Origin: a virus
Strand: one strand, 5' to 3'
Length of the DNA: 26,455 nt
UHGV virus genome: UHGV-0075053
Under the pieces are notes generated by a model. That model was not told the DNA's origin. It ran no database searches and saw only the letters and a list, made by a program, of their open reading frames with translations. Shown here one piece after another: positions 1,497 to 19,935 of this stretch (the stretch's first letter is position 1; the number at the start of each line of letters is the position of its first letter). The position numbers and the translations under genes were made by a program.

Positions 1497-3623
1497 TTAA
1501 TCTTCTTCGCTTTCTGGCTGGAACATCAGCACGTAAAAAACATGCTGCTTCCCCCCAATTTTGCCGAGCGCCTTTTTCTTGTAACGGCGATCGTTACCCG
1601 CTTCCAGCATTCCGGCAGCACTCAACGCGCGGGCAAAGTGAGACGGATTAAATCCCTGTGCTATCTCACCCTCAAATACATGCGGGAACGTGTAAAAACG
1701 GAACTCGTCATCTTCGTTTCTGATACTCCCCTTTCTGTATCCGGCAAGCTCTTTAATCGGTAAATCACGCTCGTCAGAGTTGGGCCAGGGAAGGTATCTG
1801 CTGAATCCGAACGACGCTAAAAAAGCCTCTGCCTGTTCAACCATCTGTTTAAACTCCCTGTTACCCGTGCCGAACTCCTTCACCCAGGCATTAAAATTAT
1901 GCTGTATGGCATCGCGGCATTCCTGCTCATCCCAGCCAGTAACATGACCTGAAAGCACAAGCGCGGCCTCCAGTATGGCAAATCGCTCCCCCACACGGTG
2001 AACCTGTTCGCCGTAGCTCTCCGGTATCAGGTTGCGCCACCGCTCACGGCATGTCCTTACCGTGTCCTTTGCCTCCTGCTGGTGTTCTGCCAGCCATTTA
2101 ACCCACTCACGACCCGCCGCCCCGTGATTTGCTGTCCAGGCATCCTTTAACGCGTCTGCGTGCGCCTTTCCGGTGCTGTATTCGTGAAATTGCGTGGCTT
2201 TTTCCATCGGAACGTTAAGCAGGCGGACAAGCTGCCCCGCTTTGACTTTTATCCCCTCCGTTTTGAGGAATGTCTCAACGTCCATTTCTCCGGTGCTGAT
2301 TGCCACCGTTCGCCAGTGTTTTATCTCCCTGTTGCCGCCGTCCTTTGCCCCCTGTAATTTCCCGGAACCGTTAAACAGCGTATAGGCTGACGTGGACACC
2401 TCCCGCGCGTTTCCGGCCTGGCCTATTTCATCCAGGGGTAAAAGCCCGTCATTGTGTGCCTCTGCTTCGTTGGCGATACCTAACGCTGTGCCGTACCAGG
2501 TCAGCCGCTGCGCGTCCGGCTCTCCCCATAAACTTGATGCGATGTTCTGCGTTGTGGTCTTACCTGCCGATGACTGTTCGAAAAGATGTACCCCGAAGCC
2601 GTCAGCGCCCACCAGCCCGATTAATGGTGCGGATAACGATACCGCCACCCCCAGCATCATGGACGGATTACCACCAGCCAGTCGCGCCACGGTGTCGCGC
2701 CAGCCCTCCGCCGTTCCTGCCACGGAATAGCCATTAACAGCAGCAGTTTTTCCGGTAAACAGGACTGGCTTTTCGCAATCACCAATGACCGAACCGTCCG
2801 GCATGATGTACGCGCCAAAATGCCAGCCCGTTGTTGTGCTTAACTGCCATTCCTCATGGCTTCCGCTTAACTGCATCCAGTCAGCCAGGATTGCCCTGTA
2901 TTTACCGTTGGTTGTTACGTTCAGTCCGTGGTCTTTCAGCAGCCGCCAGCCGTCACGGTCGCCAATGCCACCGCACGGAACCGCCATTGTGATGACTTCA
3001 TGATTTGCTGGCTTTTTCCAGCGCATCACGCGGTAATGTTCTTTGCCGATTGTCCCCGTTCCCAGCAGTTCAAGCGGGGAACATAACCACGTCTCAGGCC
3101 GGATAATTTCGCCTGACTGCTTGTCCACTTTTGGCGTAACCCAGAAAACACCATCGGCGCGGCTTTCAACGCGGGGCTTTAATTCATCATCACCCGGGCT
3201 TTCTGTGATTTTTTTCTTTAAGGGCAACACCAGACTTTCCCCGCGCTCGTATTCGTCTTTGAGGCGAGGCAACTGGTCGGATAAATCCGCCGGGCTGGTG
3301 TCAGTTATCCCCGCGTATTCGTATACGGTCTTCACGCCAGCCACAGCCAGCAACGTGACGATCTGTGTAAGGCTACGTTCAGTGATGTGCCCTGCGCGGT
3401 AAATACGCACACACTGACGGCTATCATCAATAATTTGATAACCGGTAATATCTTTCAGGTGTTCATCTGACAGAACGACAGGCGGCACATTGTCGGCGGC
3501 AATATGCTTACCTGCCCATTCCTGCCACTCTTTCGCATGGCTCCACGCATCACTACCCGCAAAGATGATAACCTCCGTCATTTTGTCGGCTGGCTGGTGC
3601 TTTAAGTTTGGTGCGCGCTTCAT
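1497..3623 (-). CDS. primase/helicase-type replication protein of mobile elements (DUF927-like with P-loop)
   Basis: 708 aa; Walker-A-like SSAGKTTTQ; overall resemblance to primase-helicase proteins of E. coli integrative elements (from memory); start ATG overlaps the upstream gene stop (ATGA). Confidence 0.7.
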   Translation of the reverse strand: MKRAPNLKHQPADKMTEVIIFAGSDAWSHAKEWQEWAGKHIAADNVPPVVLSDEHLKDITGYQIIDDSRQCVRIYRAGHITERSLTQIVTLLAVAGVKTVYEYAGITDTSPADLSDQLPRLKDEYERGESLVLPLKKKITESPGDDELKPRVESRADGVFWVTPKVDKQSGEIIRPETWLCSPLELLGTGTIGKEHYRVMRWKKPANHEVITMAVPCGGIGDRDGWRLLKDHGLNVTTNGKYRAILADWMQLSGSHEEWQLSTTTGWHFGAYIMPDGSVIGDCEKPVLFTGKTAAVNGYSVAGTAEGWRDTVARLAGGNPSMMLGVAVSLSAPLIGLVGADGFGVHLFEQSSAGKTTTQNIASSLWGEPDAQRLTWYGTALGIANEAEAHNDGLLPLDEIGQAGNAREVSTSAYTLFNGSGKLQGAKDGGNREIKHWRTVAISTGEMDVETFLKTEGIKVKAGQLVRLLNVPMEKATQFHEYSTGKAHADALKDAWTANHGAAGREWVKWLAEHQQEAKDTVRTCRERWRNLIPESYGEQVHRVGERFAILEAALVLSGHVTGWDEQECRDAIQHNFNAWVKEFGTGNREFKQMVEQAEAFLASFGFSRYLPWPNSDERDLPIKELAGYRKGSIRNEDDEFRFYTFPHVFEGEIAQGFNPSHFARALSAAGMLEAGNDRRYKKKALGKIGGKQHVFYVLMFQPESEED

Positions 3624-3934
3624 TTTGCCTTTCTCCGTTCACGAATAATTTCACGTACTGCCTTAATGCGTTCCATACCTGTAACGCGCATGATTCTGTC
3701 GATGTCGCTTAAGTTCGCTGGTGGTGCTTTGCTTACCAGGGTGAATTCACTCTCAAAACGCATATGTGACGACACGCAGGGATGCGCATAACCTTCGCGG
3801 ATATAGGTCACGCGAAAATCATCGACGGTTTTAATCGTTATCGTGCTGCCGTATTTATCCTGGAAAATATCGCCGGGGCGGATTTCAGGCCGAGCGGAGC
3901 CGCTGGCAGTAAAGCCAGAATTTTTCTTTTTCAT
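3620..3934 (-). CDS. hypothetical protein (104 aa), translationally coupled to the primase
   Basis: ORF with ATGA overlap onto the primase start; GGAG-type RBS; no recognisable motif. Confidence 0.5.
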   Translation of the reverse strand: MKKKNSGFTASGSARPEIRPGDIFQDKYGSTITIKTVDDFRVTYIREGYAHPCVSSHMRFESEFTLVSKAPPANLSDIDRIMRVTGMERIKAVREIIRERRKAK

Positions 3935-3940
3935 GTTTTT

Positions 3941-4159
3941 TTACTCCAGAGGCCGCTTTTTAGCGAAGAGTTCAATATCAGATGTCAGAGAAACCTGTGT
4001 ATTTGCCAGGTCTAACAACAAAGAAATAAGAATTTCCTCTCTGCTATCTGATTTATCGGTGCTAAGGCTGTTCATCCACATATTGACGACTTCCCTGATT
4101 TTTTTCGCAGAGTGCATGGCTTCAAATGCCAGGTCTTCAATATCATGTTTATTTCGCAT
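3941..4159 (-). CDS. hypothetical small protein (start uncertain, 72-94 aa)
   Basis: ORF in the same operon; internal Met at 4159 gives minimal overlap with the upstream gene. Confidence 0.4.
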   Translation of the reverse strand: MRNKHDIEDLAFEAMHSAKKIREVVNMWMNSLSTDKSDSREEILISLLLDLANTQVSLTSDIELFAKKRPLE

Positions 4160-4361
4160 AATCGCCCCCGCGTAACTGGTCTGCACTAACACCCGATTTA
4201 GTGAGCATTTCAGAAAATCCCGCAAGAGTGCTGATAAATTCGTTTTCCATTAAACGGCACTGGCATTTAACCCGGCCTTTTTCCAGATACACCAGTACGC
4301 ACCCCGTATAATCTGACGGCACATTCAGCACTACAGATAAGTGCGCTTCATTATTATTCAT
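4149..4361 (-). CDS. hypothetical small protein (70 aa)
   Basis: ORF in the minus-strand operon; start overlaps the stop of the upstream gene. Confidence 0.4.
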   Translation of the reverse strand: MNNNEAHLSVVLNVPSDYTGCVLVYLEKGRVKCQCRLMENEFISTLAGFSEMLTKSGVSADQLRGGDYAK

Positions 4362-4590
4362 GGCTCACCACCTCCATATCAGCCATGATAATTTTGCTGG
4401 CCTCATTCAGTGCCATATCAGCACTAAGTTGCATTACAGCCAGTGAATGAGGAACGAAAGCCCCGGCATATTCTGTTTCGCTGGTGGCGTGCTTATGCGC
4501 CTTGTCTGCGATAACAGAAATATCAATCAGCGCGTGCATCAGCGTTTTGATGGCTTCGGCGGCTGCGTCCGGACGGGTGTTATTGCACAT
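4354..4590 (-). CDS. hypothetical small protein (78 aa)
   Basis: ORF in the operon; its ATG at 4588-4590 overlaps the stop of the upstream 68-aa gene. Confidence 0.45.
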   Translation of the reverse strand: MCNNTRPDAAAEAIKTLMHALIDISVIADKAHKHATSETEYAGAFVPHSLAVMQLSADMALNEASKIIMADMEVVSHE

Positions 4591-4786
4591 GGAGCACCCC
4601 CTGACGAATACGGGCGGCGAATACCATCACGCAGCCAGCCGGGGATTGCTGGCGTGCTTCCTGTTCGCTGGTGGCCACGATGTGAATCACGCGCGGTTGT
4701 GCGGTGCTCAGGGCGATAAAACGCCAGATGTATTTATTCAGGTTGTGCGAGTCCCGCCCTTGCGGGTGTGTGGTATGATTTCTCAT
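4580..4786 (-). CDS. hypothetical small protein (68 aa), first gene of the leftward satellite operon
   Basis: ATG at 4786 preceded by GAGGT RBS; located just downstream of the palindromic operator region; the longer 301-aa ORF-track version is judged an artefact. Confidence 0.5.
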   Translation of the reverse strand: MRNHTTHPQGRDSHNLNKYIWRFIALSTAQPRVIHIVATSEQEARQQSPAGCVMVFAARIRQGVLHVQ

Positions 4787-4863
4787 AGCTACCTCGATAC
4801 TCTTGCTATCGTTGGTGGTTAGACGCCCTGCATGTGTTGCGAGCACTGCGGGGCGTTGCTTAA

Positions 4864-4964
4864 TTTGAGTGACAAAACTCAAACTGTGCGCACAGATTAA
4901 AATCATGTGTGCGCACATGTCAATACTTAACATCTCATTTTTTTTGCTGTATTGTGTGCGCCCA
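4864..4964. promoter_or_regulatory. divergent promoter/operator region with TGTGCGCACA palindromes
   Basis: 7-bp inverted repeat TTTGAGT-N6-ACTCAAA (4864-4883); 12-bp perfect palindrome CTGTGCGCACAG (4884-4895); second TGTGCGCACA core (4908-4917); degenerate copy TGTGTGCGCCCA (4953-4964); between divergent genes at 4786 and 4992. Confidence 0.6.
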
Positions 4965-4991
4965 TAAAGTCCATTTAAGTGAGGTGCATCA

Positions 4992-5189
4992 ATGTCTAGC
5001 GGTAACACAAACAACAAATCAGCAAAGAAAAATATTCGATTCCCACATGAGCTTATAGATGGGATTGATGCCAGCGTTGAACAAGAAAAATTAACTAATC
5101 CTAGTGCTAATTTTTCCGCATGGGTCTTAGATGCCTGTGGACGCAAATTAAAATATGAACAGCGCCGGAAGGCCAAAGAATCAGAATAA
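4992..5189 (+). CDS. ribbon-helix-helix (Arc/CopG-like) putative transcriptional regulator
   Basis: 65 aa; KNIRFPHELIDGIDASV...ANFSAWVLDAC fits a beta-strand plus two-helix RHH pattern; GTGAGGTG RBS 6 nt before ATG; directly downstream of the palindromic operators. Confidence 0.55.
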   Translation: MSSGNTNNKSAKKNIRFPHELIDGIDASVEQEKLTNPSANFSAWVLDACGRKLKYEQRRKAKESE

Positions 5190-5231
5190 TCACTATCAGC
5201 GCCGTGGTGTGAGTAACTACGGCGCATTGCT

Positions 5232-5420
5232 ATGCAGGACAACACAATGACCGATAAAGAATTGACCAAAACATTATCACCGACACGGAAAAGACGGCGC
5301 AGAAAGATAGAGCATGAATCAGAAAGATTCGCACCTTGTTCGTTTGCTCTTGAGAAATTCCTTAAAGAGCGCAGGAAAAAGCTCTCGTTGCAAACCTTGG
5401 AACGAACCAAATCTGACTGA
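5232..5420 (+). CDS. hypothetical small basic protein (start 5232 or 5247)
   Basis: ORF downstream of the RHH gene on the same strand; Arg/Lys-rich; no recognisable motif. Confidence 0.35.
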   Translation: MQDNTMTDKELTKTLSPTRKRRRRKIEHESERFAPCSFALEKFLKERRKKLSLQTLERTKSD

Positions 5421-5611
5421 TCACATTGCCCACCAGCCGCAAATGTGGCATTGTTGGTGATGCTTTTGTTTTCCCTTGTTCCCACTGGCTACCCTTTTGC
5501 GGTCGCCTTTGTTTTGCCTGTTATCCGGCAATAGTGGCGCTTCGTCACCTGTCTGATATAATTCCACTGCTTATATTCATTTTTTGCGCAGTAGGTTAAT
5601 TGTTCGCAAGG

Positions 5612-5642
5612 GCGCTCCGGCAACGGGGCGCTTTTTGTTTTT
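5612..5642 (+). terminator. rho-independent terminator
   Basis: Stem GCGCTCC/GGGGCGC with 6-nt loop followed by TTTTTGTTTTT. Confidence 0.55.
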
Positions 5643-5800
5643 ACCCACCAGCACAATAAAAATCTTCATTTTCCATTTTTGTAAAATTTCATGCTTTCCG
5701 GACGACTGGTCATATGTCATTTTTTAGCAGAAGATTTTGCCTTGCTGGTGGGTAGCTTCCCGGTCAACACGATGTACCGTATAATCAACACCGCGTGTGG

Positions 5801-6382
5801 TTACTGAATACGCTCACCAAAGTAAAACTCAGGCTGGTATTCACGTATCAGCCTTTTTTCTTCTTCCTCCAGCTCACGCTTTTTGCGCTTACATGCCTGT
5901 AGCTCCCTCCCCTTCTCGCTGGCACTTATCTGATATTGCTCTTTGCGGCGGGAAAAATCCTGTAATGCGCCCCACGGGATACCATAAGCCCCCGTTTTTC
6001 TGATACCCGGTATCACATTTCTGAATACCCAGTTACTGAAACGATGGGCGAACGTGCCAGGAGTAGCAGCTTTGCGACTTCTGGCAATCAGCTTGTAAAA
6101 GCCAGATTCAGAAACGACGCTATGATTTGGATTTCCGCGAATACCGTAAGTTAAAGTTACGGTATTACTTTCATCATCATCCAGAGCTTGCAACGCCATG
6201 CGTGAATTGGATAATTCAAGCGCCGCACAAACATCCTTTGCAACAAACCACGGATCGCCGTTCAGATACACCACACGAACATCCACGCCATCAAAACGTA
6301 GAACGACCTGATCACGAATATCGCAGAATTTTTTCACTGGACGTGCATTCCCCTTGCCCATCATGGCAATATTTTTATTCAT
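5801..6382 (-). CDS. Bro-N domain protein (phage antirepressor-like)
   Basis: N-terminal VRVVYLNGDPWFVAKDVCAALEL motif typical of the Bro-N family; ATG at 6382 with GAGGTAG RBS (ORF-track start at 6385 is GTG). Confidence 0.65.
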   Translation of the reverse strand: MNKNIAMMGKGNARPVKKFCDIRDQVVLRFDGVDVRVVYLNGDPWFVAKDVCAALELSNSRMALQALDDDESNTVTLTYGIRGNPNHSVVSESGFYKLIARSRKAATPGTFAHRFSNWVFRNVIPGIRKTGAYGIPWGALQDFSRRKEQYQISASEKGRELQACKRKKRELEEEEKRLIREYQPEFYFGERIQ

Positions 6383-6401
6383 CACTTTCTACCTCACATA
6401 C

Positions 6402-6429
6402 AAAAAACCCCGCATTGCGTGGTGCGGGG
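6402..6429 (-). terminator. rho-independent terminator (minus strand)
   Basis: Stem CCCCGCA/TGCGGGG with 8-nt loop; T-run on the minus strand (A-run 6402-6407 on plus). Confidence 0.55.
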
Positions 6430-6439
6430 TTGTCGGTAA

Positions 6440-6718
6440 TTACTTATTGGCGTTTTTGTATGGGCTGTTTACTTCCTTTACTCCTGGCGGATGCATAACC
6501 CACCAGAGCACATCAGAGAGCAACCAGGAAACAGACACTTTCCCTAAATGAGCACGAGCAGGAAATGCTCCCTCCTGTTCAAGTACCCAACGTCTGCTTC
6601 TTGAAAGCCCGGTACGATTGGCACACTCATGTTCGCGTATACGGCGATCATACGGTTCGCCATGCTCTTTCAGAATCTGAATGCGTTCTTCGGGTGTAGG
6701 ATAAATAAATTTTTGCAT
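6440..6718 (-). CDS. AlpA-family DNA-binding protein (second copy)
   Basis: ECANRTGLSRSRRWVLEQEGAFPARAHLGKVSVSWLLSDVLWWV resembles the AlpA/Phage_AlpA HTH pattern; start taken at ATG 6718 because the ORF-track start 6748 overlaps the upstream terminator. Confidence 0.55.
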   Translation of the reverse strand: MQKFIYPTPEERIQILKEHGEPYDRRIREHECANRTGLSRSRRWVLEQEGAFPARAHLGKVSVSWLLSDVLWWVMHPPGVKEVNSPYKNANK

Positions 6719-6730
6719 AAAAATATCACC

Positions 6731-6758
6731 TATAAAAAAACCCGCCAAAAGACGGGTT
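6731..6758 (-). terminator. rho-independent terminator (minus strand)
   Basis: Stem AACCCG/CGGGTT with 8-nt loop; T-run on the minus strand. Confidence 0.5.
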
Positions 6759-6781
6759 GATTATATCTCATTTAATTTAGC

Positions 6782-7015
6782 TCAGGGTTTCCATTCACCC
6801 TTTACCCATTCCAGCACCTCAGATAAGCGCCAGACTTTTGTTTGTGGGCCAATACATATTTTTCGTGGAAATTTTCCTTCCTTTTCAAGTAACGATCTGT
6901 GTCTCCTGCCAAGAGCGGTTAACCATGCACATTCATCTTCCTTAATCATCCTGTCGATTGTTTTATCATTTTCAAGTTCTTCACGCGTAACTATTTGAAT
7001 CATTACCGTCACCAC
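6782..7015 (-). CDS. AlpA-family regulator adjacent to the integrase (start uncertain: 7015, 7003 or 6949)
   Basis: ECAWLTALGRRHRSLLEKEGKFPRKICIGPQTKVWRLSEVLEWV matches the AlpA pattern; position immediately downstream of int as in P4-like islands. Confidence 0.6.
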   Translation of the reverse strand: MVTVMIQIVTREELENDKTIDRMIKEDECAWLTALGRRHRSLLEKEGKFPRKICIGPQTKVWRLSEVLEWVKGEWKP

Positions 7016-8204
7016 TAATTAGCTTATTCAGATAGTCATACCACCAATTCATAGCTTCTTTTTTTCTGTCCATATACTGGCTTCTGTTATAAACCCCGGC
7101 AACACCGCCTAATGTGTGCCCAAGCAACTGTTCAACCACATTATGTTCAAAACCATGATCACTTAGCTTTGTGGCAAACACTCTTCGCATATCATGCGCC
7201 GTCCATTTCTCCGAGTGTTTCATCCTTTTCCATGTCTTACCGATAGTTACGCTTGCCGTACACTGACGCATATCAAACCCAATCACATTTTCTTTGTTAC
7301 CTGTTATTTTTTTTAACGTAACTAACCAGTTAAACATGCCATCAGGAATCGGTCTGATTATTTCCCTGCCATTTTTGCTATGATCAGCGGGAACGCGCCA
7401 TAATTTCTTATCAAAATCCCACTCTCCCCAGGAGGACAGTAATACTTCTGACAGTCGACAACCAAAAACTACCAGGAAACGTAAAATAATTCGGTTTTCA
7501 TATGATAATTCGTGATTGTCATAATCAGTATTAATACTTCGCCATAAATCTCTGATTTCATCATCTGTTAAAACCCTGCTTCTTCGCGCAGACTTTTTTC
7601 CCACATCACAGACCTCAAGATCATCAATTTCATGACTAATCGCGTATTTTCTTACCCGACAAAATTTAAGCGCCTGTTTTGATATACGCAACAAAGCTCC
7701 GGCCTGTACAGGTGCTACTTTTTTTATTTTGTCAAAACACTTGATCCACATAGATATAGAGCAATCACTAAGTGGTACATGACCAATCACCGGATAAATA
7801 TGTTTACCAAAGCACTGCCTGATATGTTCTGCTCCCCTACGCTTATCCATTGCATAATTATCAAGCCAGTATTCAAGTGCCTCACGAACGGTAACAGGTT
7901 GCAAGGTGGCTTCCCGTTCAATTTTTATCTGAATCCGTGGATCTCTGCCCTCCGCAAGCCAGGTTCGACACTGATCGCGCATCTCTCTCGCTGATTTGAG
8001 ACTCAGATCAGGATATTTCCCAAGTGTCAGCCAGATGGGCGCGGTTCCCCTTCCCGCCAGTCTGTAAAAGAAAACAAAACTAACACATCCGTATTTACTG
8101 ACCCGTACCGAAAGCCCGTTACCATCAGCGATGGTTTCCTGCCTCTCACTCCTGCGCCCAAGCAGGGAACGAAGTTTTTTATCGCTCAGTTTGTTTAGCG
8201 CCAT
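6981..8204 (-). CDS. int: tyrosine integrase, P4-like
   Basis: N-terminal arm-binding pattern (LSDKKLRSL...GNGLSVRVSKYG...FVFFYR), C-terminal catalytic region with HxxR-like LLGH and conserved Tyr context; start set to ATG 8204 (MALNKLSDKK). Confidence 0.85.
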   Translation of the reverse strand: MALNKLSDKKLRSLLGRRSERQETIADGNGLSVRVSKYGCVSFVFFYRLAGRGTAPIWLTLGKYPDLSLKSAREMRDQCRTWLAEGRDPRIQIKIEREATLQPVTVREALEYWLDNYAMDKRRGAEHIRQCFGKHIYPVIGHVPLSDCSISMWIKCFDKIKKVAPVQAGALLRISKQALKFCRVRKYAISHEIDDLEVCDVGKKSARRSRVLTDDEIRDLWRSINTDYDNHELSYENRIILRFLVVFGCRLSEVLLSSWGEWDFDKKLWRVPADHSKNGREIIRPIPDGMFNWLVTLKKITGNKENVIGFDMRQCTASVTIGKTWKRMKHSEKWTAHDMRRVFATKLSDHGFEHNVVEQLLGHTLGGVAGVYNRSQYMDRKKEAMNWWYDYLNKLISGDGNDSNSYA

Positions 8205-8209
8205 GTGAT

Positions 8210-9403
8210 TTATAACCCGTTTTTGCAATACACAGTGCAATACACAAATGATGAAAACAGCCAGAACCTTCCAGAAAAAACAAAAACGACGAACAAGAAA
8301 AAATCTTTTTCTTTCATTTGGTTACTAAAAAAATCAGGACAGGTCGCACTGTTGTTACGGCGTGATGTTACTTTCTTGGTAAAAAAATTCACCCGCGCAG
8401 AGACCTGCTCCTTCGCTTTTTTCGCCAGACGACGCAGATCATCCCAGCGTTTACAGATGCCCAGGCCAGGATTCGCTTTCTGCCAGACCGTTTCATCAAA
8501 CGGATCATCTCCCTCATCAAGCGTGTAAATGATCGCAAAGTAAGAGTCGTCTTTTACAGCGCCCTCCACGTCGCTGTTATAGCCTCGCAATACCTTGATG
8601 GCGTAATCACGCTGCTCGTAACAAATCCCTTCCTTGTTAAAGCCAGCCGTGGTGATACCAAATAACAGGGACTGCAGACGGGCACCGGTTGCCGTTTCCA
8701 GAACGTCCCACACGTCGCGGGTTTTATGTGCATGCAGCTCATCAATAATGGCGCAGTGGATGTTCAGACCGTCCAGGTTGTTTGCATCCGAGGAAAGCGG
8801 TTCAAATTTTGATGCGCTCTGCTCCTGGTAAATCGCCAGCTTGTTGAAATCAAACAACCGCCCGAGTGTCGACCGGGCTTTTCTGACCATATTTTTGGCG
8901 TCTTCAAACACGATTCTGGCCTGGTCAAGCGTGGTTGCGGCTGAATACACCTCAGCTCCGCCTTCACTATCTGCCCCCGTCATATACAGACCGATACCCG
9001 ATGACAGGGTTGATTTTGCGTTTTTACGGGCAACTTCGTTGTATGCTGTCCGGAACCGGCGCACCATCACCGGGCGTCCACTGCCATCGCTGCGCATGAC
9101 AACTTCCCCGGTTTCTTCATTCACCAGCGGAATGACAAAACCAAAAATATTAATGAGGATAAACACATGCCAGTCCATCAACTCAATGGGCTGACCTGCC
9201 AGCGCCCCTTTCACATGGGGTACAAATTTGTAGAAATTAAGGATGTGCTGTGCACGAGGTTCACTGAAATAAATCCCCCGCTCTTCGCCGTACTTCAGAT
9301 CATCAAGAAAACGCTGGCAGGCCAGACGGACAAATTCGCCAGCAACAATTTCTCCTGCAACAACACGTTCGGCGTAGCGGATCCCGTCAGCCACTTTTGC
9401 CAT
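8210..9403 (-). pseudogene. terminase large subunit, N-terminal ATPase portion only (C-terminally truncated)
   Basis: N-terminal ~340 aa look terminase-like; the last ~55 aa (about 8210-8400) are low-complexity read-through; full-length TerL would be far longer; ends next to the integrase gene. Confidence 0.7.
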
Positions 9404-13151: not shown

Positions 13152-13226
<75 letters not shown>

Positions 13227-13342
13227 ATCCTGGAACTCGGCTACCTGATTTTCATTCTGCACTGAATATCGAGAGAAGCTCTCTTTATTCGAGCCGGTAA
13301 GCGAACTTATCGTCTCGGGCTACGCCATCGCGTGGCCGAAAT

Positions 13343-13427
<85 letters not shown>

Positions 13428-13435
13428 GGACTTGA

Positions 13436-13511
<76 letters not shown>

Positions 13512-13513
13512 AC

Positions 13514-13590
13514 TGGACCGCCACCGGGGACTCGAACCTCGCACACTCAACTTAAAGGGTTGACGCTCTTTCCTGATGAGCTAGTGGCGG
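13514..13590 (-). tRNA. atypical tRNA-like gene, anticodon UUU (Lys-like) with unusual anticodon loop CCUUUAA
   Basis: Cloverleaf can be drawn: acceptor CCGCCAC/GTGGCGG, D-arm GCTC/GAGC, anticodon stem TCAAC/GTTGA, T-loop TTCGAGT, 3' CCA; but C at position 33 and an A-C mismatch in the T-stem are non-canonical. Confidence 0.45.
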
Positions 13591-13591
13591 T

Positions 13592-13667
13592 TGGTGGCCC
13601 TTGCTGGATTTGAACCAGCGACCTGGCGATTATGAGTCGCTCGCTCTCACCACTGAGCTAAAGGGCC
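13592..13667 (-). tRNA. tRNA with CAU anticodon, ileX/ileY-like (tRNA-Ile2 type; Met not excluded)
   Basis: Reverse complement GGCCCTTTAGCTCAGTGGTGAGAGCGAGCGACTCATAATCGCCAGGTCGCTGGTTCAAATCCAGCAAGGGCCACCA resembles E. coli ileX from memory. Confidence 0.7.
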
Positions 13668-16177: not shown

Positions 16178-17305
16178 TCATGCTTTCCACTTCAGAACAC
16201 CCGAATTTCTCGCGTGCATTAAAAAACGAATCAGCAACAACAGCTGGCTGCCGTGTTTTTCTTCAAAATCTTTTACCCCGGCGTGCAGTTCGTTATGACA
16301 TTTACGGCACAGCGGAATAACAAACAAATCATCAGCCTTTGTTCCCATACCTCCCAGGCCATGACCAATGATGTGATGCGGATCATCTGCCTGATTACCG
16401 CACGTCATGCATTTCTGCGTTTTTACCCAGCGCGTGTATACAGGCATCTCTTCCCGTTGTGGTTTCTGGCGCTGGAGATACTGAACCGGAGACTCCGGAT
16501 CAACGGCAATGCTGACCACCGTCTTTTCCTGTGGCGGGTTTTGCTGGTGGGCATGAGGCAACGGCGCAAGATTTTTTGTGCGCTGCTTCAGTATGCTGGT
16601 GGCGGTCTGCTCTCCCGGTACGATATCGCTTTCGCGGTACAAGGAGCGGATTTTTTCCGCACGTAACCCCAGAGAACGACGTAATACTGCCTCCGGAAGC
16701 GCGTCCGCCACCTGATTGCAGACCGCCCACCAGGATAATTCAGCCAGCGACAATTCCCGCTCCTGCGTGCCATTCATTGCATGGCGTATGACGTCAATCA
16801 TCCATGCTGACAGGTTTTGATGAGCAAGCTGCCCGAGTGATTCGGATGTCTGGTCACGCAACTGGTTGTCGCAGTGCCAGCACAACACCATCGCGCCGGT
16901 ACCGTAACGATGTATGACGATTTCACTGTGATGATAGTCACCATGAGGCCACTGGCAGGATTTGACATGACGCAACAGCCAGTCAGACAGTGCCCCAGCG
17001 CCGCCAGCAGCACGAATCACCCGCTCATCGCTGAAAAATGGCAGTAATGATTTATCCTCCGCCAGCGGCTGGCGAACGGCAGGGACGACTCCGGACGGCA
17101 GACCGCGCATGCTTTTCGGTTCAGGCTCCACCAGCACTCGAGGGTTATGAAATACTTGCATGGATTCACGGCCCGGCCTAAGGACCACCAGCCCAAGTTC
17201 CGGTACCAGAACAGGTCGAAGTAATATCCGCACGTTACCTCCAGATCCGTTGCTGGTATGTGCGGGATGGGCGCGGTGGGCGTTCGGAATAAGGGAGCCT
17301 GACAT
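16178..17305 (-). CDS. DUF968-family protein (YdfU-like) with C-terminal HNH-like zinc motif; true start possibly ATG 17161
   Basis: C-terminus CMTCGNQADDPHHIIGHGLGGMGTKADDLFVIPLCRKCHNELH; position between rusA and hok region as in Qin. Confidence 0.65.
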   Translation of the reverse strand: MSGSLIPNAHRAHPAHTSNGSGGNVRILLRPVLVPELGLVVLRPGRESMQVFHNPRVLVEPEPKSMRGLPSGVVPAVRQPLAEDKSLLPFFSDERVIRAAGGAGALSDWLLRHVKSCQWPHGDYHHSEIVIHRYGTGAMVLCWHCDNQLRDQTSESLGQLAHQNLSAWMIDVIRHAMNGTQERELSLAELSWWAVCNQVADALPEAVLRRSLGLRAEKIRSLYRESDIVPGEQTATSILKQRTKNLAPLPHAHQQNPPQEKTVVSIAVDPESPVQYLQRQKPQREEMPVYTRWVKTQKCMTCGNQADDPHHIIGHGLGGMGTKADDLFVIPLCRKCHNELHAGVKDFEEKHGSQLLLLIRFLMHARNSGVLKWKA

Positions 17306-17513
17306 AGATTATCCAGTGACGATAATCGAGGCTGAGGGCTTTCTTAATCTCGTATCCGCGTCTGCGATAGTTATGAATTAGCCATTCGGCCTGTTCTTCA
17401 GTACATGGGTCATGCTGGAACCAGTCAGATTTGAAAGTGCGGGAACGCCGCCCGCGCCTGCTGGCAAAGACGGCAGAATCATCAGAATTGTGTAATTTGG
17501 TATCGTGCGCCAT
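17235..17513 (-). CDS. hypothetical protein (92 aa from ATG 17513)
   Basis: ORF in the nin-like region; the ORF-track N-terminal extension starts with TTG inside a terminator T-run and is rejected. Confidence 0.4.
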   Translation of the reverse strand: MAHDTKLHNSDDSAVFASRRGRRSRTFKSDWFQHDPCTEEQAEWLIHNYRRRGYEIKKALSLDYRHWIIYVRLPYSERPPRPSRTYQQRIWR

Positions 17514-17585: not shown

Positions 17586-17610
17586 AAAAAACAAAACCCG
17601 CCGAAGCGGG
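17586..17610 (-). terminator. rho-independent terminator (minus strand)
   Basis: CCCGC-CGAA-GCGGG hairpin followed by a T-run on the minus strand. Confidence 0.6.
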
Positions 17611-17809
17611 TATGCTAAAACAAACTGAAAGTAATATACCGGACTTGTAAAGGAACGATAGAATAATTATTGGATTAAACCCTGACTCAATCCAGATTTC
17701 ATAGGCAACAACTACGGACTAATCATCACAGTCATGTTTGATAGGCTTAGTCCACATTGGGTGAGGGTTTACGGCGTTTTCACTAATAATTTATCGTCCA
17801 AGCTATACA

Positions 17810-18202
17810 CTACTGCCCTGTTTTAACGAAGTTTTTAAAGGAAACAACTGCCTGATAGGGGTTTGGTTGACAGCCAAACATATTATCGCAAAAAGGCTTG
17901 ATGAAAATTCTTGAGGATCCATCTTCATTTGGCATTTTACTCACTTGATAAGCGAGGAATGGACTATTTGGAGAGGGATTATAAGTGGAAATTAGCGTGT
18001 CTGTCGCCGTTTGAATTTTCCATGAGGAATTATTAGCCAACCAGAATTGCGCTCGTTTCCAATAAAAGTCACATTGCTTTTCATCATTACATGTTAGTGG
18101 CTTCATTGCTTCTGCTTTCAACGCTGGATCGATCTTTGCTGCACACCCTCCCAACATTACTGTTGCAATCATTACACCTGCGACTAAAACAAGTTTCTTC
18201 AT
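17810..18202 (-). CDS. putative secreted lipoprotein (130 aa), moron-like
   Basis: Signal peptide with lipobox-like MLGGC; four further Cys in the mature part; AGGGAG RBS; flanked by AT-rich DNA and its own terminator. Confidence 0.6.
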   Translation of the reverse strand: MKKLVLVAGVMIATVMLGGCAAKIDPALKAEAMKPLTCNDEKQCDFYWKRAQFWLANNSSWKIQTATDTLISTYNPSPNSPFLAYQVSKMPNEDGSSRIFIKPFCDNMFGCQPNPYQAVVSFKNFVKTGQ

Positions 18203-18345
18203 CTCCCTGCCCCATCAATAAAAGTTCGGTTCTCTAATAACTAGAGTTAATCAACGGAAAAAACGCCGAAGCGGGTTAAGTGCGGGTGCGTTGAGGATGC
18301 CTGACACATCAGAGGTGGCGAGGGATTTCTCCCCCGCCAGGTCTC

Positions 18346-18501
18346 TTACTCCTCAGGTTCGTAAGCTGTGAAGACAGCGACCTCCGTCTGGCCGGTTCGG
18401 ATTCGTACCTCGCAGAGGTCTTTCCTCGTTACCAGTGCCGTCACTATGACGGTTAAACAGATGACGATCAGGGCGATTAACATCGCCTTTTGCTGCTTCA
18501 T
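18346..18501 (-). CDS. hokD: Hok/Gef-family small membrane toxin (HokD/RelF-like)
   Basis: MKQQKAMLIALIVICLTVIVTALVTRKDLCEVRIRTGQTEVAVFTAYEPEE matches E. coli HokD from memory; start set to ATG 18501. Confidence 0.9.
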   Translation of the reverse strand: MKQQKAMLIALIVICLTVIVTALVTRKDLCEVRIRTGQTEVAVFTAYEPEE

Positions 18502-19125
18502 AGCCTGCTTCTCCTTGCCTTTCGGCACGTAAGAGGCTAACCTAGATTTGCCGTTCATAGATTGAGCCTCAGATTAATGTTAAGCGTCTTGCAGGACGCG
18601 TAATGTTAACTGGGGCTTTTCTCTATCTGCCTTTGGTGTTCATGCCTGAGACAGATAGCCTCAAGCACCCGCAGCCATTCTACTTAACTCCCGTTACCTC
18701 GCCAATATAAAATCAATCAGAAAAGCGATCCATAAGAACAACAGCAAGACAATAAATTGCCATTACAGCTGCAATAGCCAGCGCACATTTGAGAACCAGC
18801 ACGACAACCTCCTGTATTGGACGTACACCAGTTCTGATAAATATGAGGCTGTCTCATCATTGATGAGATACAACTATTGGGTATAGTTTCTGTGATTTTG
18901 TTCTGTAGAAATGGAACACAACAACCAGTCACCACCAGCACTTCTTTAAATACGCCAAGTCCGACGCAAGCTAACCTTCTAGTCCGCTTTGAGCGAAAAG
19001 CAGACTGTCACGCGTTGAAGTTAATTGTATTACTTAGATAAACACTATCATTTTCCTGACGTTAAGTTGTATCTTTGATAGGATTAAAAAACGTATAGAT
19101 AGCTTATGCTACTGAGGGAATAAAA

Positions 19126-19935
19126 ATGACGAAAATTAGTGAACGATGGAAGCACAATGGCATTACTGAAGGTTATTGCAATATTTGTGGGAAATATGGC
19201 TTGCTCACAAAAGATCATGTTCCTCCAAAGTGCGCCATAACCTTAGGCCCTGTTTTGCAGAAAACAGTTAGCGAATTTTTTGGTATTCAGGAACCAGTTA
19301 AACCATTAAATGCTAAAAATGGCTCTTATTTCAGAACCATTTGCAGCCACTGTAACAATAAGGTATTAGGTGGGCTCGATGTTGCAATTGAAAATGTAAC
19401 AAAGTCCTTTAAAGAACAGTTAAGTCGATATATGAATGGTATGAATGTATATCCATTCATTAGAATACCTTTTGATAGCATATCTTTCACTAAGGCTATG
19501 ATTGGGCACGTGCTATCAGCAACTTCAGTTGAAGATTGTAAAAAAGAACCCGTAGATAGCCCCTTCTATACACCTTTAAAGGATTATGTTTTGGGTAAAA
19601 ATTCAAGTTTTGAGGAAACTCATGATATTTACTACTGGTTTTACCCACACAGAATGCACATATCCGCTCAAAGTGTAGCATTTATGAACGAAGGACATGT
19701 GGCATTTATTTGTGCTTTACATTTTTTTCCTATCGGTTTTATTATCACAATGAAAAATGAAGGAACATACCCTGCCCACTCTACAAAATTAGAACTTGAG
19801 GATAAATTCCTTACATTTAATATGACCTCTATAAATTATGAGTATACGACATTTCCATTTGTAAATCTTAAGGGAAACCAAATGTATGCGATAAGCAACG
19901 GTCATACTTGTGTGAGTTATCCAATAATTAAGTGA
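19126..19935 (+). CDS. hypothetical protein with N-terminal HNH/His-Me-finger-like motif and ~190-aa C-terminal domain of unknown function
   Basis: CNICGKYGLLTKDHVPPK...CSHCNN resembles the CxxC...DHxxP...CxxCN HNH pattern; GAGGGA RBS; AT-rich coding region; lone gene on the strand opposite its neighbours. Confidence 0.6.
   Translation: MTKISERWKHNGITEGYCNICGKYGLLTKDHVPPKCAITLGPVLQKTVSEFFGIQEPVKPLNAKNGSYFRTICSHCNNKVLGGLDVAIENVTKSFKEQLSRYMNGMNVYPFIRIPFDSISFTKAMIGHVLSATSVEDCKKEPVDSPFYTPLKDYVLGKNSSFEETHDIYYWFYPHRMHISAQSVAFMNEGHVAFICALHFFPIGFIITMKNEGTYPAHSTKLELEDKFLTFNMTSINYEYTTFPFVNLKGNQMYAISNGHTCVSYPIIK

Follow-up and report, generated by a model that had tools for sequence, protein, structure and literature searches.

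Tail-tip gene clusters and immunity-adjacent spots are typical places for phage exclusion genes such as llp and cor, and gp15 of HK97 is an exclusion moron located inside the tail gene cluster. Mature Llp and Cor have a size of about 60 residues. Llp, a periplasmic lipoprotein whose gene adjoins that of the receptor-binding protein, shuts FhuA by an allosteric mechanism; like Cor, it is a small lipoprotein with only one disulfide (PMC9586334). They are made during infection and do not need a promoter active in the lysogen. The prophage gene described here resembles T5 llp and the cor genes of T1, phi80 and N15 in encoding a small phage lipoprotein with a putative disulfide-stabilised periplasmic domain. 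Its Enterobacter and Pantoea relatives also lie, as do llp and cor, in or beside tail or receptor-binding modules. However, the protein has no sequence or fold kinship to Llp and Cor; its mature part is about twice as large and contains four cysteines instead of two, and the gene resides in a hok/nin region and not beside a receptor-binding gene. A second group of described systems, the classical lambdoid morons (lambda bor and lom and HK97 gp15), shares with our locus the anatomy of a discrete, compositionally deviant and terminator-bounded insert for an envelope protein, which some of the otherwise collinear phages have and others lack. The locus differs from them in that no promoter of its own was detected, its terminator is a duplicated copy of that of hokD, and its protein comes from a family with no relation to Bor, Lom and gp15; the lipoprotein gave no Pfam match to lambda Bor/Iss (PF06291).

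The window analysed is a 26,455-nucleotide stretch of viral DNA (UHGV virus genome UHGV-0075053). It is a lambdoid, Qin-like Escherichia coli prophage, and the lipoprotein cassette lies in the early-right (nin-like) operon. Downstream of the cI-like repressor region, the minus strand reads through the replication genes, an opposite-strand 269-aa ORF, sok/hokD, the lipoprotein gene, a rem-like ORF, DUF968 (YdfU), RusA, Q, a tRNA cluster and the lysis genes. The features of the locus are as follows.

17235..17513, minus strand: rem-like small ORF of 92 aa (phrog_1212), the downstream neighbour, followed by DUF968, RusA and Q
17586..17611, minus strand: intact intrinsic terminator, with its stem at 17611..17596 and its U-tract reaching 17586; holds the downstream repeat copy (17599-17611)
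17612..17809, minus strand: AT-rich non-coding 3' spacer of 198 nt, 36.9% GC, with stop codons in all frames
17810..18202, minus strand: lipoprotein coding sequence from the ORF list, 130 aa, identical to WP_000737634.1 ('hypothetical protein'); phrog_16082
18143..18202, minus strand: putative signal peptide read from the sequence, with the lipobox L17-G18-G19-C20 and A21 at position +2
18203..18263, minus strand: 61-nt leader with the palindrome CTCTA-N5-TAGAG, the conserved ACTTTTATTGATGGGG and a GGGAG directly before the ATG, without a match to a sigma-70 promoter
18264..18276, minus strand: upstream copy of the 13-bp repeat, ACCCGCTTCGGCG on this strand, a crippled hairpin whose 3' arm lacks GG, followed by TTTTTT
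18346..18501, minus strand: hokD toxin coding sequence (Pfam HOK_GEF, 3e-23; hokD in RefSeq), whose terminator hosts the cassette
18496..18670, minus strand: hok leader and sok antitoxin RNA (Rfam RF01794 sok, 110 bits, E = 1.4e-25)

We first consider the protein. The original prediction of a 130-aa product with a signal peptide, an LGGC lipobox and four cysteines in the mature domain was borne out in all of these points. The ORF was found on the minus strand at 18202..17810, and the N-terminus of its product reads MKKLVLVAGVMIATVMLGGC… / MKKLVLVAGVMIATVMLGGCAAK…. Direct reading showed agreement with the PROSITE lipoprotein pattern PS51257, with K2/K3, the uncharged 13-residue stretch LVLVAGVMIATVM and L-G-G-C20. 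The corresponding lipobox in homologues is a classical LSGC, LAGC or LVGC, and Cys20 is invariant in 52 diverse homologues. C38, C44, C105 and C111 of the mature part are likewise invariant or nearly so in these 52 proteins, which are 31-80% identical; the four conserved cysteines probably form two periplasmic disulfides. By the Lol +2 sorting rule of E. coli, lipoproteins without Asp at +2 go to the outer membrane. The +2 residue here is Ala, and the mature lipoprotein is therefore predicted to reside in the outer membrane.

The ORF is a real gene under purifying selection. The dN/dS of the E. coli lipoprotein gene is 0.08-0.31, and none of the 60 IMG/VR loci has a disrupted reading frame; about 250 complete E. 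coli genomes likewise carry an intact ORF. E. coli APEC IMT5155 and other strains share a 901-bp region with the window at 100% identity, and the gene product there is WP_000737634.1. The phrog_16082 HMM matches the full length of the protein (residues 1-130 of 130; E = 2.9e-84). No paper was found when the literature was searched with the protein accession. In the 90%-identity protein collection the lipoprotein was clustered with 70-aa Hok toxins, apparently a clustering artefact arising from partial or fused gene calls; the initial homology search consequently gave only fragments as E. coli representatives.

The gene is carried by a 652-bp cassette (17612-18263 of the window) that encodes this 130-aa prolipoprotein as its only protein and has a GC content of 38.8%, compared with 52-55% in the flanks. 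Direct repeats of 13 bp, located at 17599-17611 and 18264-18276 on the plus strand, flank the insert. Read from hokD, the order in the window is ACCCGCTTCGGCG/TTTTTTCC…, the cassette and then …AGCAT/ACCCGCTTCGGCGGGTTTTGTTTTTTCC, where the slashes mark the junctions. The downstream repeat copy is part of an intact hairpin (ACCCGC-UUCG-GCGGGU, followed by UUUUGUUUUUU) with a folding energy of -13.1 kcal/mol and z = -3.3. The upstream copy reaches only -6 kcal/mol in a different structure (z = -0.36), compared with -13 to -14.7 kcal/mol for intact copies. Loss of the GG is fixed in all 55 E. coli-type copies whose upstream junction is readable, including alleles that are 93-97% identical.

Comparison with cassette-free prophages indicated what the cassette has entered. 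K-12 Qin and roughly 2400 complete genomes have …TTAACCCGCTTCGGCGGGTTTTGTTTTTT directly 3' of hokD, that is, an unfilled site, and APEC E18055 contains the exact empty site, in which one intact hairpin is followed at once by the rem-like flank of the window. As the identical hairpin stands directly after hokD in prophages lacking the cassette, the terminator 3' of the cassette is the native hokD terminator. Thus, the clean rho-independent terminator of the original prediction is present, but it belongs to hokD and is not the lipoprotein gene's own; the range assigned earlier (17611-18345) covers the gene and the spacer, and its start at 17611 cuts off the terminator at 17586-17611. The cassette is a horizontally acquired insert inside the hokD terminator. 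It occurs in about 250-255 of 5426 complete E. coli genomes (~4.7%) and is absent from most sister prophages. All 55 E. coli-type IMG/VR copies occupy the same slot wherever the flanks are within the contig, and two isolated phages carry the cassette in the same arrangement. Base composition and frequency are the grounds for reading the event as an insertion; the repeats by themselves give no direction, and a deletion between the 13-bp repeats could have occurred instead. Entry of the cassette into the hokD terminator by recombination between near-identical UUCG hairpins is plausible.

Two of the moron features of Hendrix/Juhala are present here, namely presence or absence between the same flanking genes and a deviant base composition. 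As for another, a promoter of its own for expression from the repressed prophage, a consensus scan from hokD to the ATG gave no candidate. The earlier designation of the locus as a moron therefore holds for a discrete low-GC insert that is missing from collinear prophages with an intact empty site, but not for an autonomous transcription unit, as no promoter was found and the terminator is common to hokD. The hokD/rem-like gene junction is a mosaic hot spot. NZ_CM187540.1 (locus L004, ~1665-2120) has an intact hokD terminator, and at the same junction with the rem-like gene this is immediately followed by another, non-coding insert that measures about 291 bp.

The predicted stretch of about 200 bp of AT-rich DNA corresponds to the 198-bp spacer following the stop codon (36.9% GC). 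Of 5426 complete E. coli genomes, 255 contain this spacer, and in each case the lipoprotein gene accompanies it. It gave no Rfam match and folded no better than shuffled sequences (z = -0.73); a small RNA or riboswitch was rejected on these grounds. An origin as a remnant of the second lipoprotein gene of Pantoea-type prophages (see below) was also rejected, there being no tblastn similarity. A second allele group with 95-98% aa identity (IMG/VR L026, L046, L054-L056, L058-L060 and L062-L064) has a spacer of 129 nt in place of 198 nt, indicating that part of the spacer is dispensable.

No sigma-70-like promoter was detected from hokD to the lipoprotein ATG, the 61-nt leader included; this was a simple consensus scan, so a weak promoter or one for an alternative sigma factor may still be present. 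The closest same-strand promoter-like site in the scan is at 18705..18677, upstream of hok. The 'strong RBS' proposed originally is doubtful, since the GGGAG occupies positions -5 to -1 and abuts the ATG with zero spacer, and the better placed GGGG at -11 to -8, which is kept in all relatives, is a weak Shine-Dalgarno candidate. Such poor spacing may limit translation of the lipoprotein. Although synonymous sites are saturated, the different genera have kept the leader and start region.

The hok/sok locus (18264-18670, minus strand) looks intact apart from the terminator. Because the cassette splits that terminator, the hok mRNA may gain a 3' extension of ~650 nt, with possible consequences for the regulation of hok translation through the 3' end. 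Upstream of sok/hokD, a 269-aa ORF of about 33% GC (19126-19935, plus strand) runs opposite to the early-right operon; it belongs to phrog_21495, which has no assigned function, gave no Pfam or PADLOC match and is possibly a defence gene. In APEC IMT5155 the same slot is occupied by queH, which marks it as a second site of exchangeable accessory genes. Between Q and the lysis genes, at 13152-13667, the minus strand carries a cluster of five tRNA genes (Gly-TCC, Tyr-GTA, Thr-TGT, Lys-TTT and Met-CAT). Farther along this strand, a region at 1497-9403 looks like a P4-like or satellite element inserted in the prophage terL: the terminase large subunit (8210-9403, 397 aa) is truncated within its nuclease domain and adjoins genes for an integrase (6981-8240) and for a DUF927 primase/helicase-like protein of 708 aa (1497-3623).

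Homologues with 66-84% aa identity are present in Enterobacter and Pantoea prophages, where AACCCGCTTCGG(C/T)GGGTTTT is found ahead of the gene, just upstream of the leader. The leader is partly conserved (…TTTACTGATGGGGATAGGGAT-ATG) and the flanking genes differ, a combination that favours movement of the cassette together with a 5' hairpin. The Enterobacter and Pantoea homologues each end in a different terminator of their own. The gene orders around homologues in other phages are as follows.

Enterobacter (L005): tape measure gene, lipoprotein gene, gpM
Pantoea type (L067): gpI, lipoprotein gene, gpJ
L009, L065 and L066: ant, lipoprotein gene plus a second lipoprotein gene, then further genes including gpI and gpJ
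L074 (33% identical), a GTA-like siphophage: homologue flanked by tail genes on one side and by distal-tail, hub and host-specificity genes on the other
L080, L082 and L083: homologue adjoining repressor-like or early genes

The family has been captured repeatedly by temperate siphophages, often within tail-tip gene clusters. The Pantoea-type loci L009, L065 and L066 carry a two-lipoprotein cassette beside gpI/gpJ, in which the second gene (6374-6721, 6374-6784 and 6332-6679, respectively) is unrelated to the first and overlaps the 3' end of the homologue.

The lipoprotein is an ordinary prophage accessory gene for an envelope protein and comes from a large uncurated family. The close relatives returned by a word-indexed search numbered only 16 and came from Enterobacter, Pantoea and Phytobacter, and an exhaustive profile search returned 1140 clusters (50% identity) at E <= 1e-3, with 532 at E <= 1e-10. 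Members are mostly lipoproteins of 125-135 aa, some having a C-terminal PDZ domain or a tandem duplication. Scans of the lipoprotein and 52 family members against Pfam, NCBIfam and PADLOC gave nothing curated, and a Pfam scan of the lipoprotein at E <= 0.1 gave no family apart from a spurious C4 match. The only PHROGs matched by the family are phrog_16082 and phrog_4186, both without assigned function; all 52 diverse members match phrog_16082. The distant members (~40-50% identity) are chromosomal genes of Burkholderiaceae. They were retrieved by a profile scan of genome contigs with a narrower alignment of distant members, the same type of scan with the close-relative alignment having given no matches. 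Among 80 species of Paraburkholderia, Caballeronia and Mycetohabitans, 62 have it immediately downstream of gshA (glutamate-cysteine ligase). The Burkholderiaceae loci (L084-L163, gene at ~5001-5380) also show ada and alkA upstream and an emrB/marR/outer-membrane efflux cluster downstream. This ada-alkA-gshA-lipoprotein-emrB/marR-OEP neighbourhood was dropped as a functional lead, as it looks like lineage synteny. We regard phrog_16082, phrog_4186 and the gshA-linked Burkholderiaceae lipoprotein as true homologues, on the basis of the same length, the lipobox, the four cysteines and a CDNMFGC-like motif; the chromosomal proteins differ in not being phage-associated and in that some carry C-terminal PDZ domains. 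Since most of the family is chromosomal and includes PDZ fusions, the domain must serve the cell in a way that is not necessarily connected with phages.

The AF2 model has an overall pLDDT of 83.8, with values above 90 for residues 30-130. It predicts that the mature domain of ~110 aa is an alpha+beta, generic helix-grip-like binding module, a fold that points to no particular activity. The fold-search figures were 8.6 for Flpp3/DUF3568, ~8 for AMPK and KA1 domains, 7.8 for the N-terminal domain of BamC and ~6 for START/Bet v1. Foldseek searches against the PDB and BFVD viral structures returned nothing below E = 1e-3, and sequence-profile searches against the PDB returned only noise. Flpp3 (DUF3568, from Francisella) and BamC-N resemble the predicted fold, but the identity is 11-14% with no profile-level match, and the four cysteines are particular to the family of the E. 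coli lipoprotein. Neither protein hints at a function for it.

These observations can be joined in a model in which a horizontally acquired lipoprotein cassette is expressed by read-through and acts in phage exclusion at the envelope level, a reading to which we assign a probability of about 40%. The prolipoprotein would be acylated at Cys20, cleaved and sorted to the outer membrane, and its helix-grip-like domain would form two disulfides in the periplasm. Transcription would enter from upstream, from the hok promoter and/or the early-right operon, cross the GG-less hairpin copy and end at the intact downstream hairpin. Read-through is suggested by the missing promoter between hokD and the ATG and by the weakness of the upstream hairpin (-6 kcal/mol), the truncation of which is fixed; as the gene itself shows no promoter, its expression in lysogens is only proposed. 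At the envelope, the lipoprotein may protect the lysogen or the induced cell against adsorption of phages or entry of their DNA. It would then bring about superinfection exclusion or lytic conversion in a manner functionally like Llp and Cor, which engage an outer-membrane receptor from its periplasmic side, but using an unrelated fold.

Superinfection exclusion, already suggested in the original prediction, or lytic conversion is our best guess for the function, and it is a circumstantial one drawn from genomic context. It is favoured by the recurrence of relatives inside siphophage tail-tip clusters or beside immunity regions; against it, the window's own copy is not near tail or receptor-binding genes, and the wider family consists mostly of chromosomal genes that are not phage-associated. 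PADLOC gave no match for the lipoprotein, and neither its sequence nor its fold resembles Cor, Llp or other known exclusion proteins. A more far-reaching version appears doubtful to us: the lipoprotein would be the founder of an unrecognised family of exclusion or lytic-conversion lipoproteins, derived from a housekeeping envelope lipoprotein of Proteobacteria and passed from siphophage to siphophage as a hairpin-bounded cassette, with UUCG hairpins serving as portable homology. Its expression in the lysogen would come from read-through from a constitutive hok promoter, made possible by the 2-nt loss that disables the upstream hairpin.

Among the other explanations, a conversion factor for host fitness or virulence is unlikely but survives best. 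The protein would, in a Bor-like way and with no anti-phage role, help the lysogen through envelope changes such as serum or complement resistance, stress tolerance or adhesion. A predicted outer-membrane lipoprotein on a low-GC prophage cassette is what one would expect for such a factor, and in a plain list of hosts and sources, avian-pathogenic, other extra-intestinal and livestock isolates appear frequent among the best matches. The nearest fold match, Flpp3, was deposited as an 'F. tularensis virulence determinant', and the chromosomal relatives suggest a general envelope role. However, the protein is not homologous to Bor/Iss, no promoter for expression in the lysogen is visible, and the recurrent placement in tail clusters, in the same orientation as the late genes, suggests that the gene is expressed in the lytic phase and not in lysogens.

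This last pattern would suit a periplasmic binding or inhibitor module that serves the phage's own lytic cycle, acting on an envelope enzyme, a protease or PDZ partner, or outer-membrane biogenesis, and that has kept the cellular role of the chromosomal family. Promoterless positions in late or early-right operons fit lytic-growth expression, the gene is conserved on the chromosomes of Burkholderiaceae with some PDZ fusions or tandem duplicates, and the helix-grip-like fold resembles the protein- or ligand-binding BamC-N, KA1 and START domains. With no conserved functional partner gene across the contexts, we consider such a module quite unlikely. Still less probable is an effectively neutral hitchhiking cassette that is spread by recombination at terminator hairpins and has no phenotype in E. 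coli. Its low frequency (only about 4.7% of genomes) and absence from most sister prophages, the lack of a visible promoter, the poor Shine-Dalgarno spacing and the variable, apparently dispensable 3' spacer agree with neutrality, but the purifying selection on the ORF, a frame intact in 60 of 60 viral-contig copies and the retention of the leader and start region across genera at saturated synonymous sites do not. Membership of the lipoprotein in the Cor/Llp family as a divergent, FhuA-blocking exclusion lipoprotein is effectively refuted by the sequence and fold comparisons, because the weak PHROG match to Cor (phrog_1119, E = 0.0088) is limited to residues 1-43, which are the signal peptide, and a mature domain of ~110 aa with four cysteines and a predicted alpha+beta helix-grip fold contrasts with the small single-disulfide Llp and Cor and found no structural match to Llp in PDB searches.

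If no phage-related effect exists, the lipoprotein is one more uncharacterised prophage accessory gene. If envelope-level exclusion is true, it would represent a structurally new class beside the few exclusion lipoproteins of Gram-negative hosts (Cor and Llp), would point to an outer-membrane or periplasmic entry factor used by siphophages, and would provide a function for a family that comprises over 1000 sequence clusters and is absent from curated databases. The most useful leads are the hairpin-in-hairpin anatomy and the recurrent association with tail modules. The anatomy is a clean example of accessory-gene shuffling at terminator hairpins, in which transcription from a toxin-antitoxin locus can take over a cargo gene once it is inserted.
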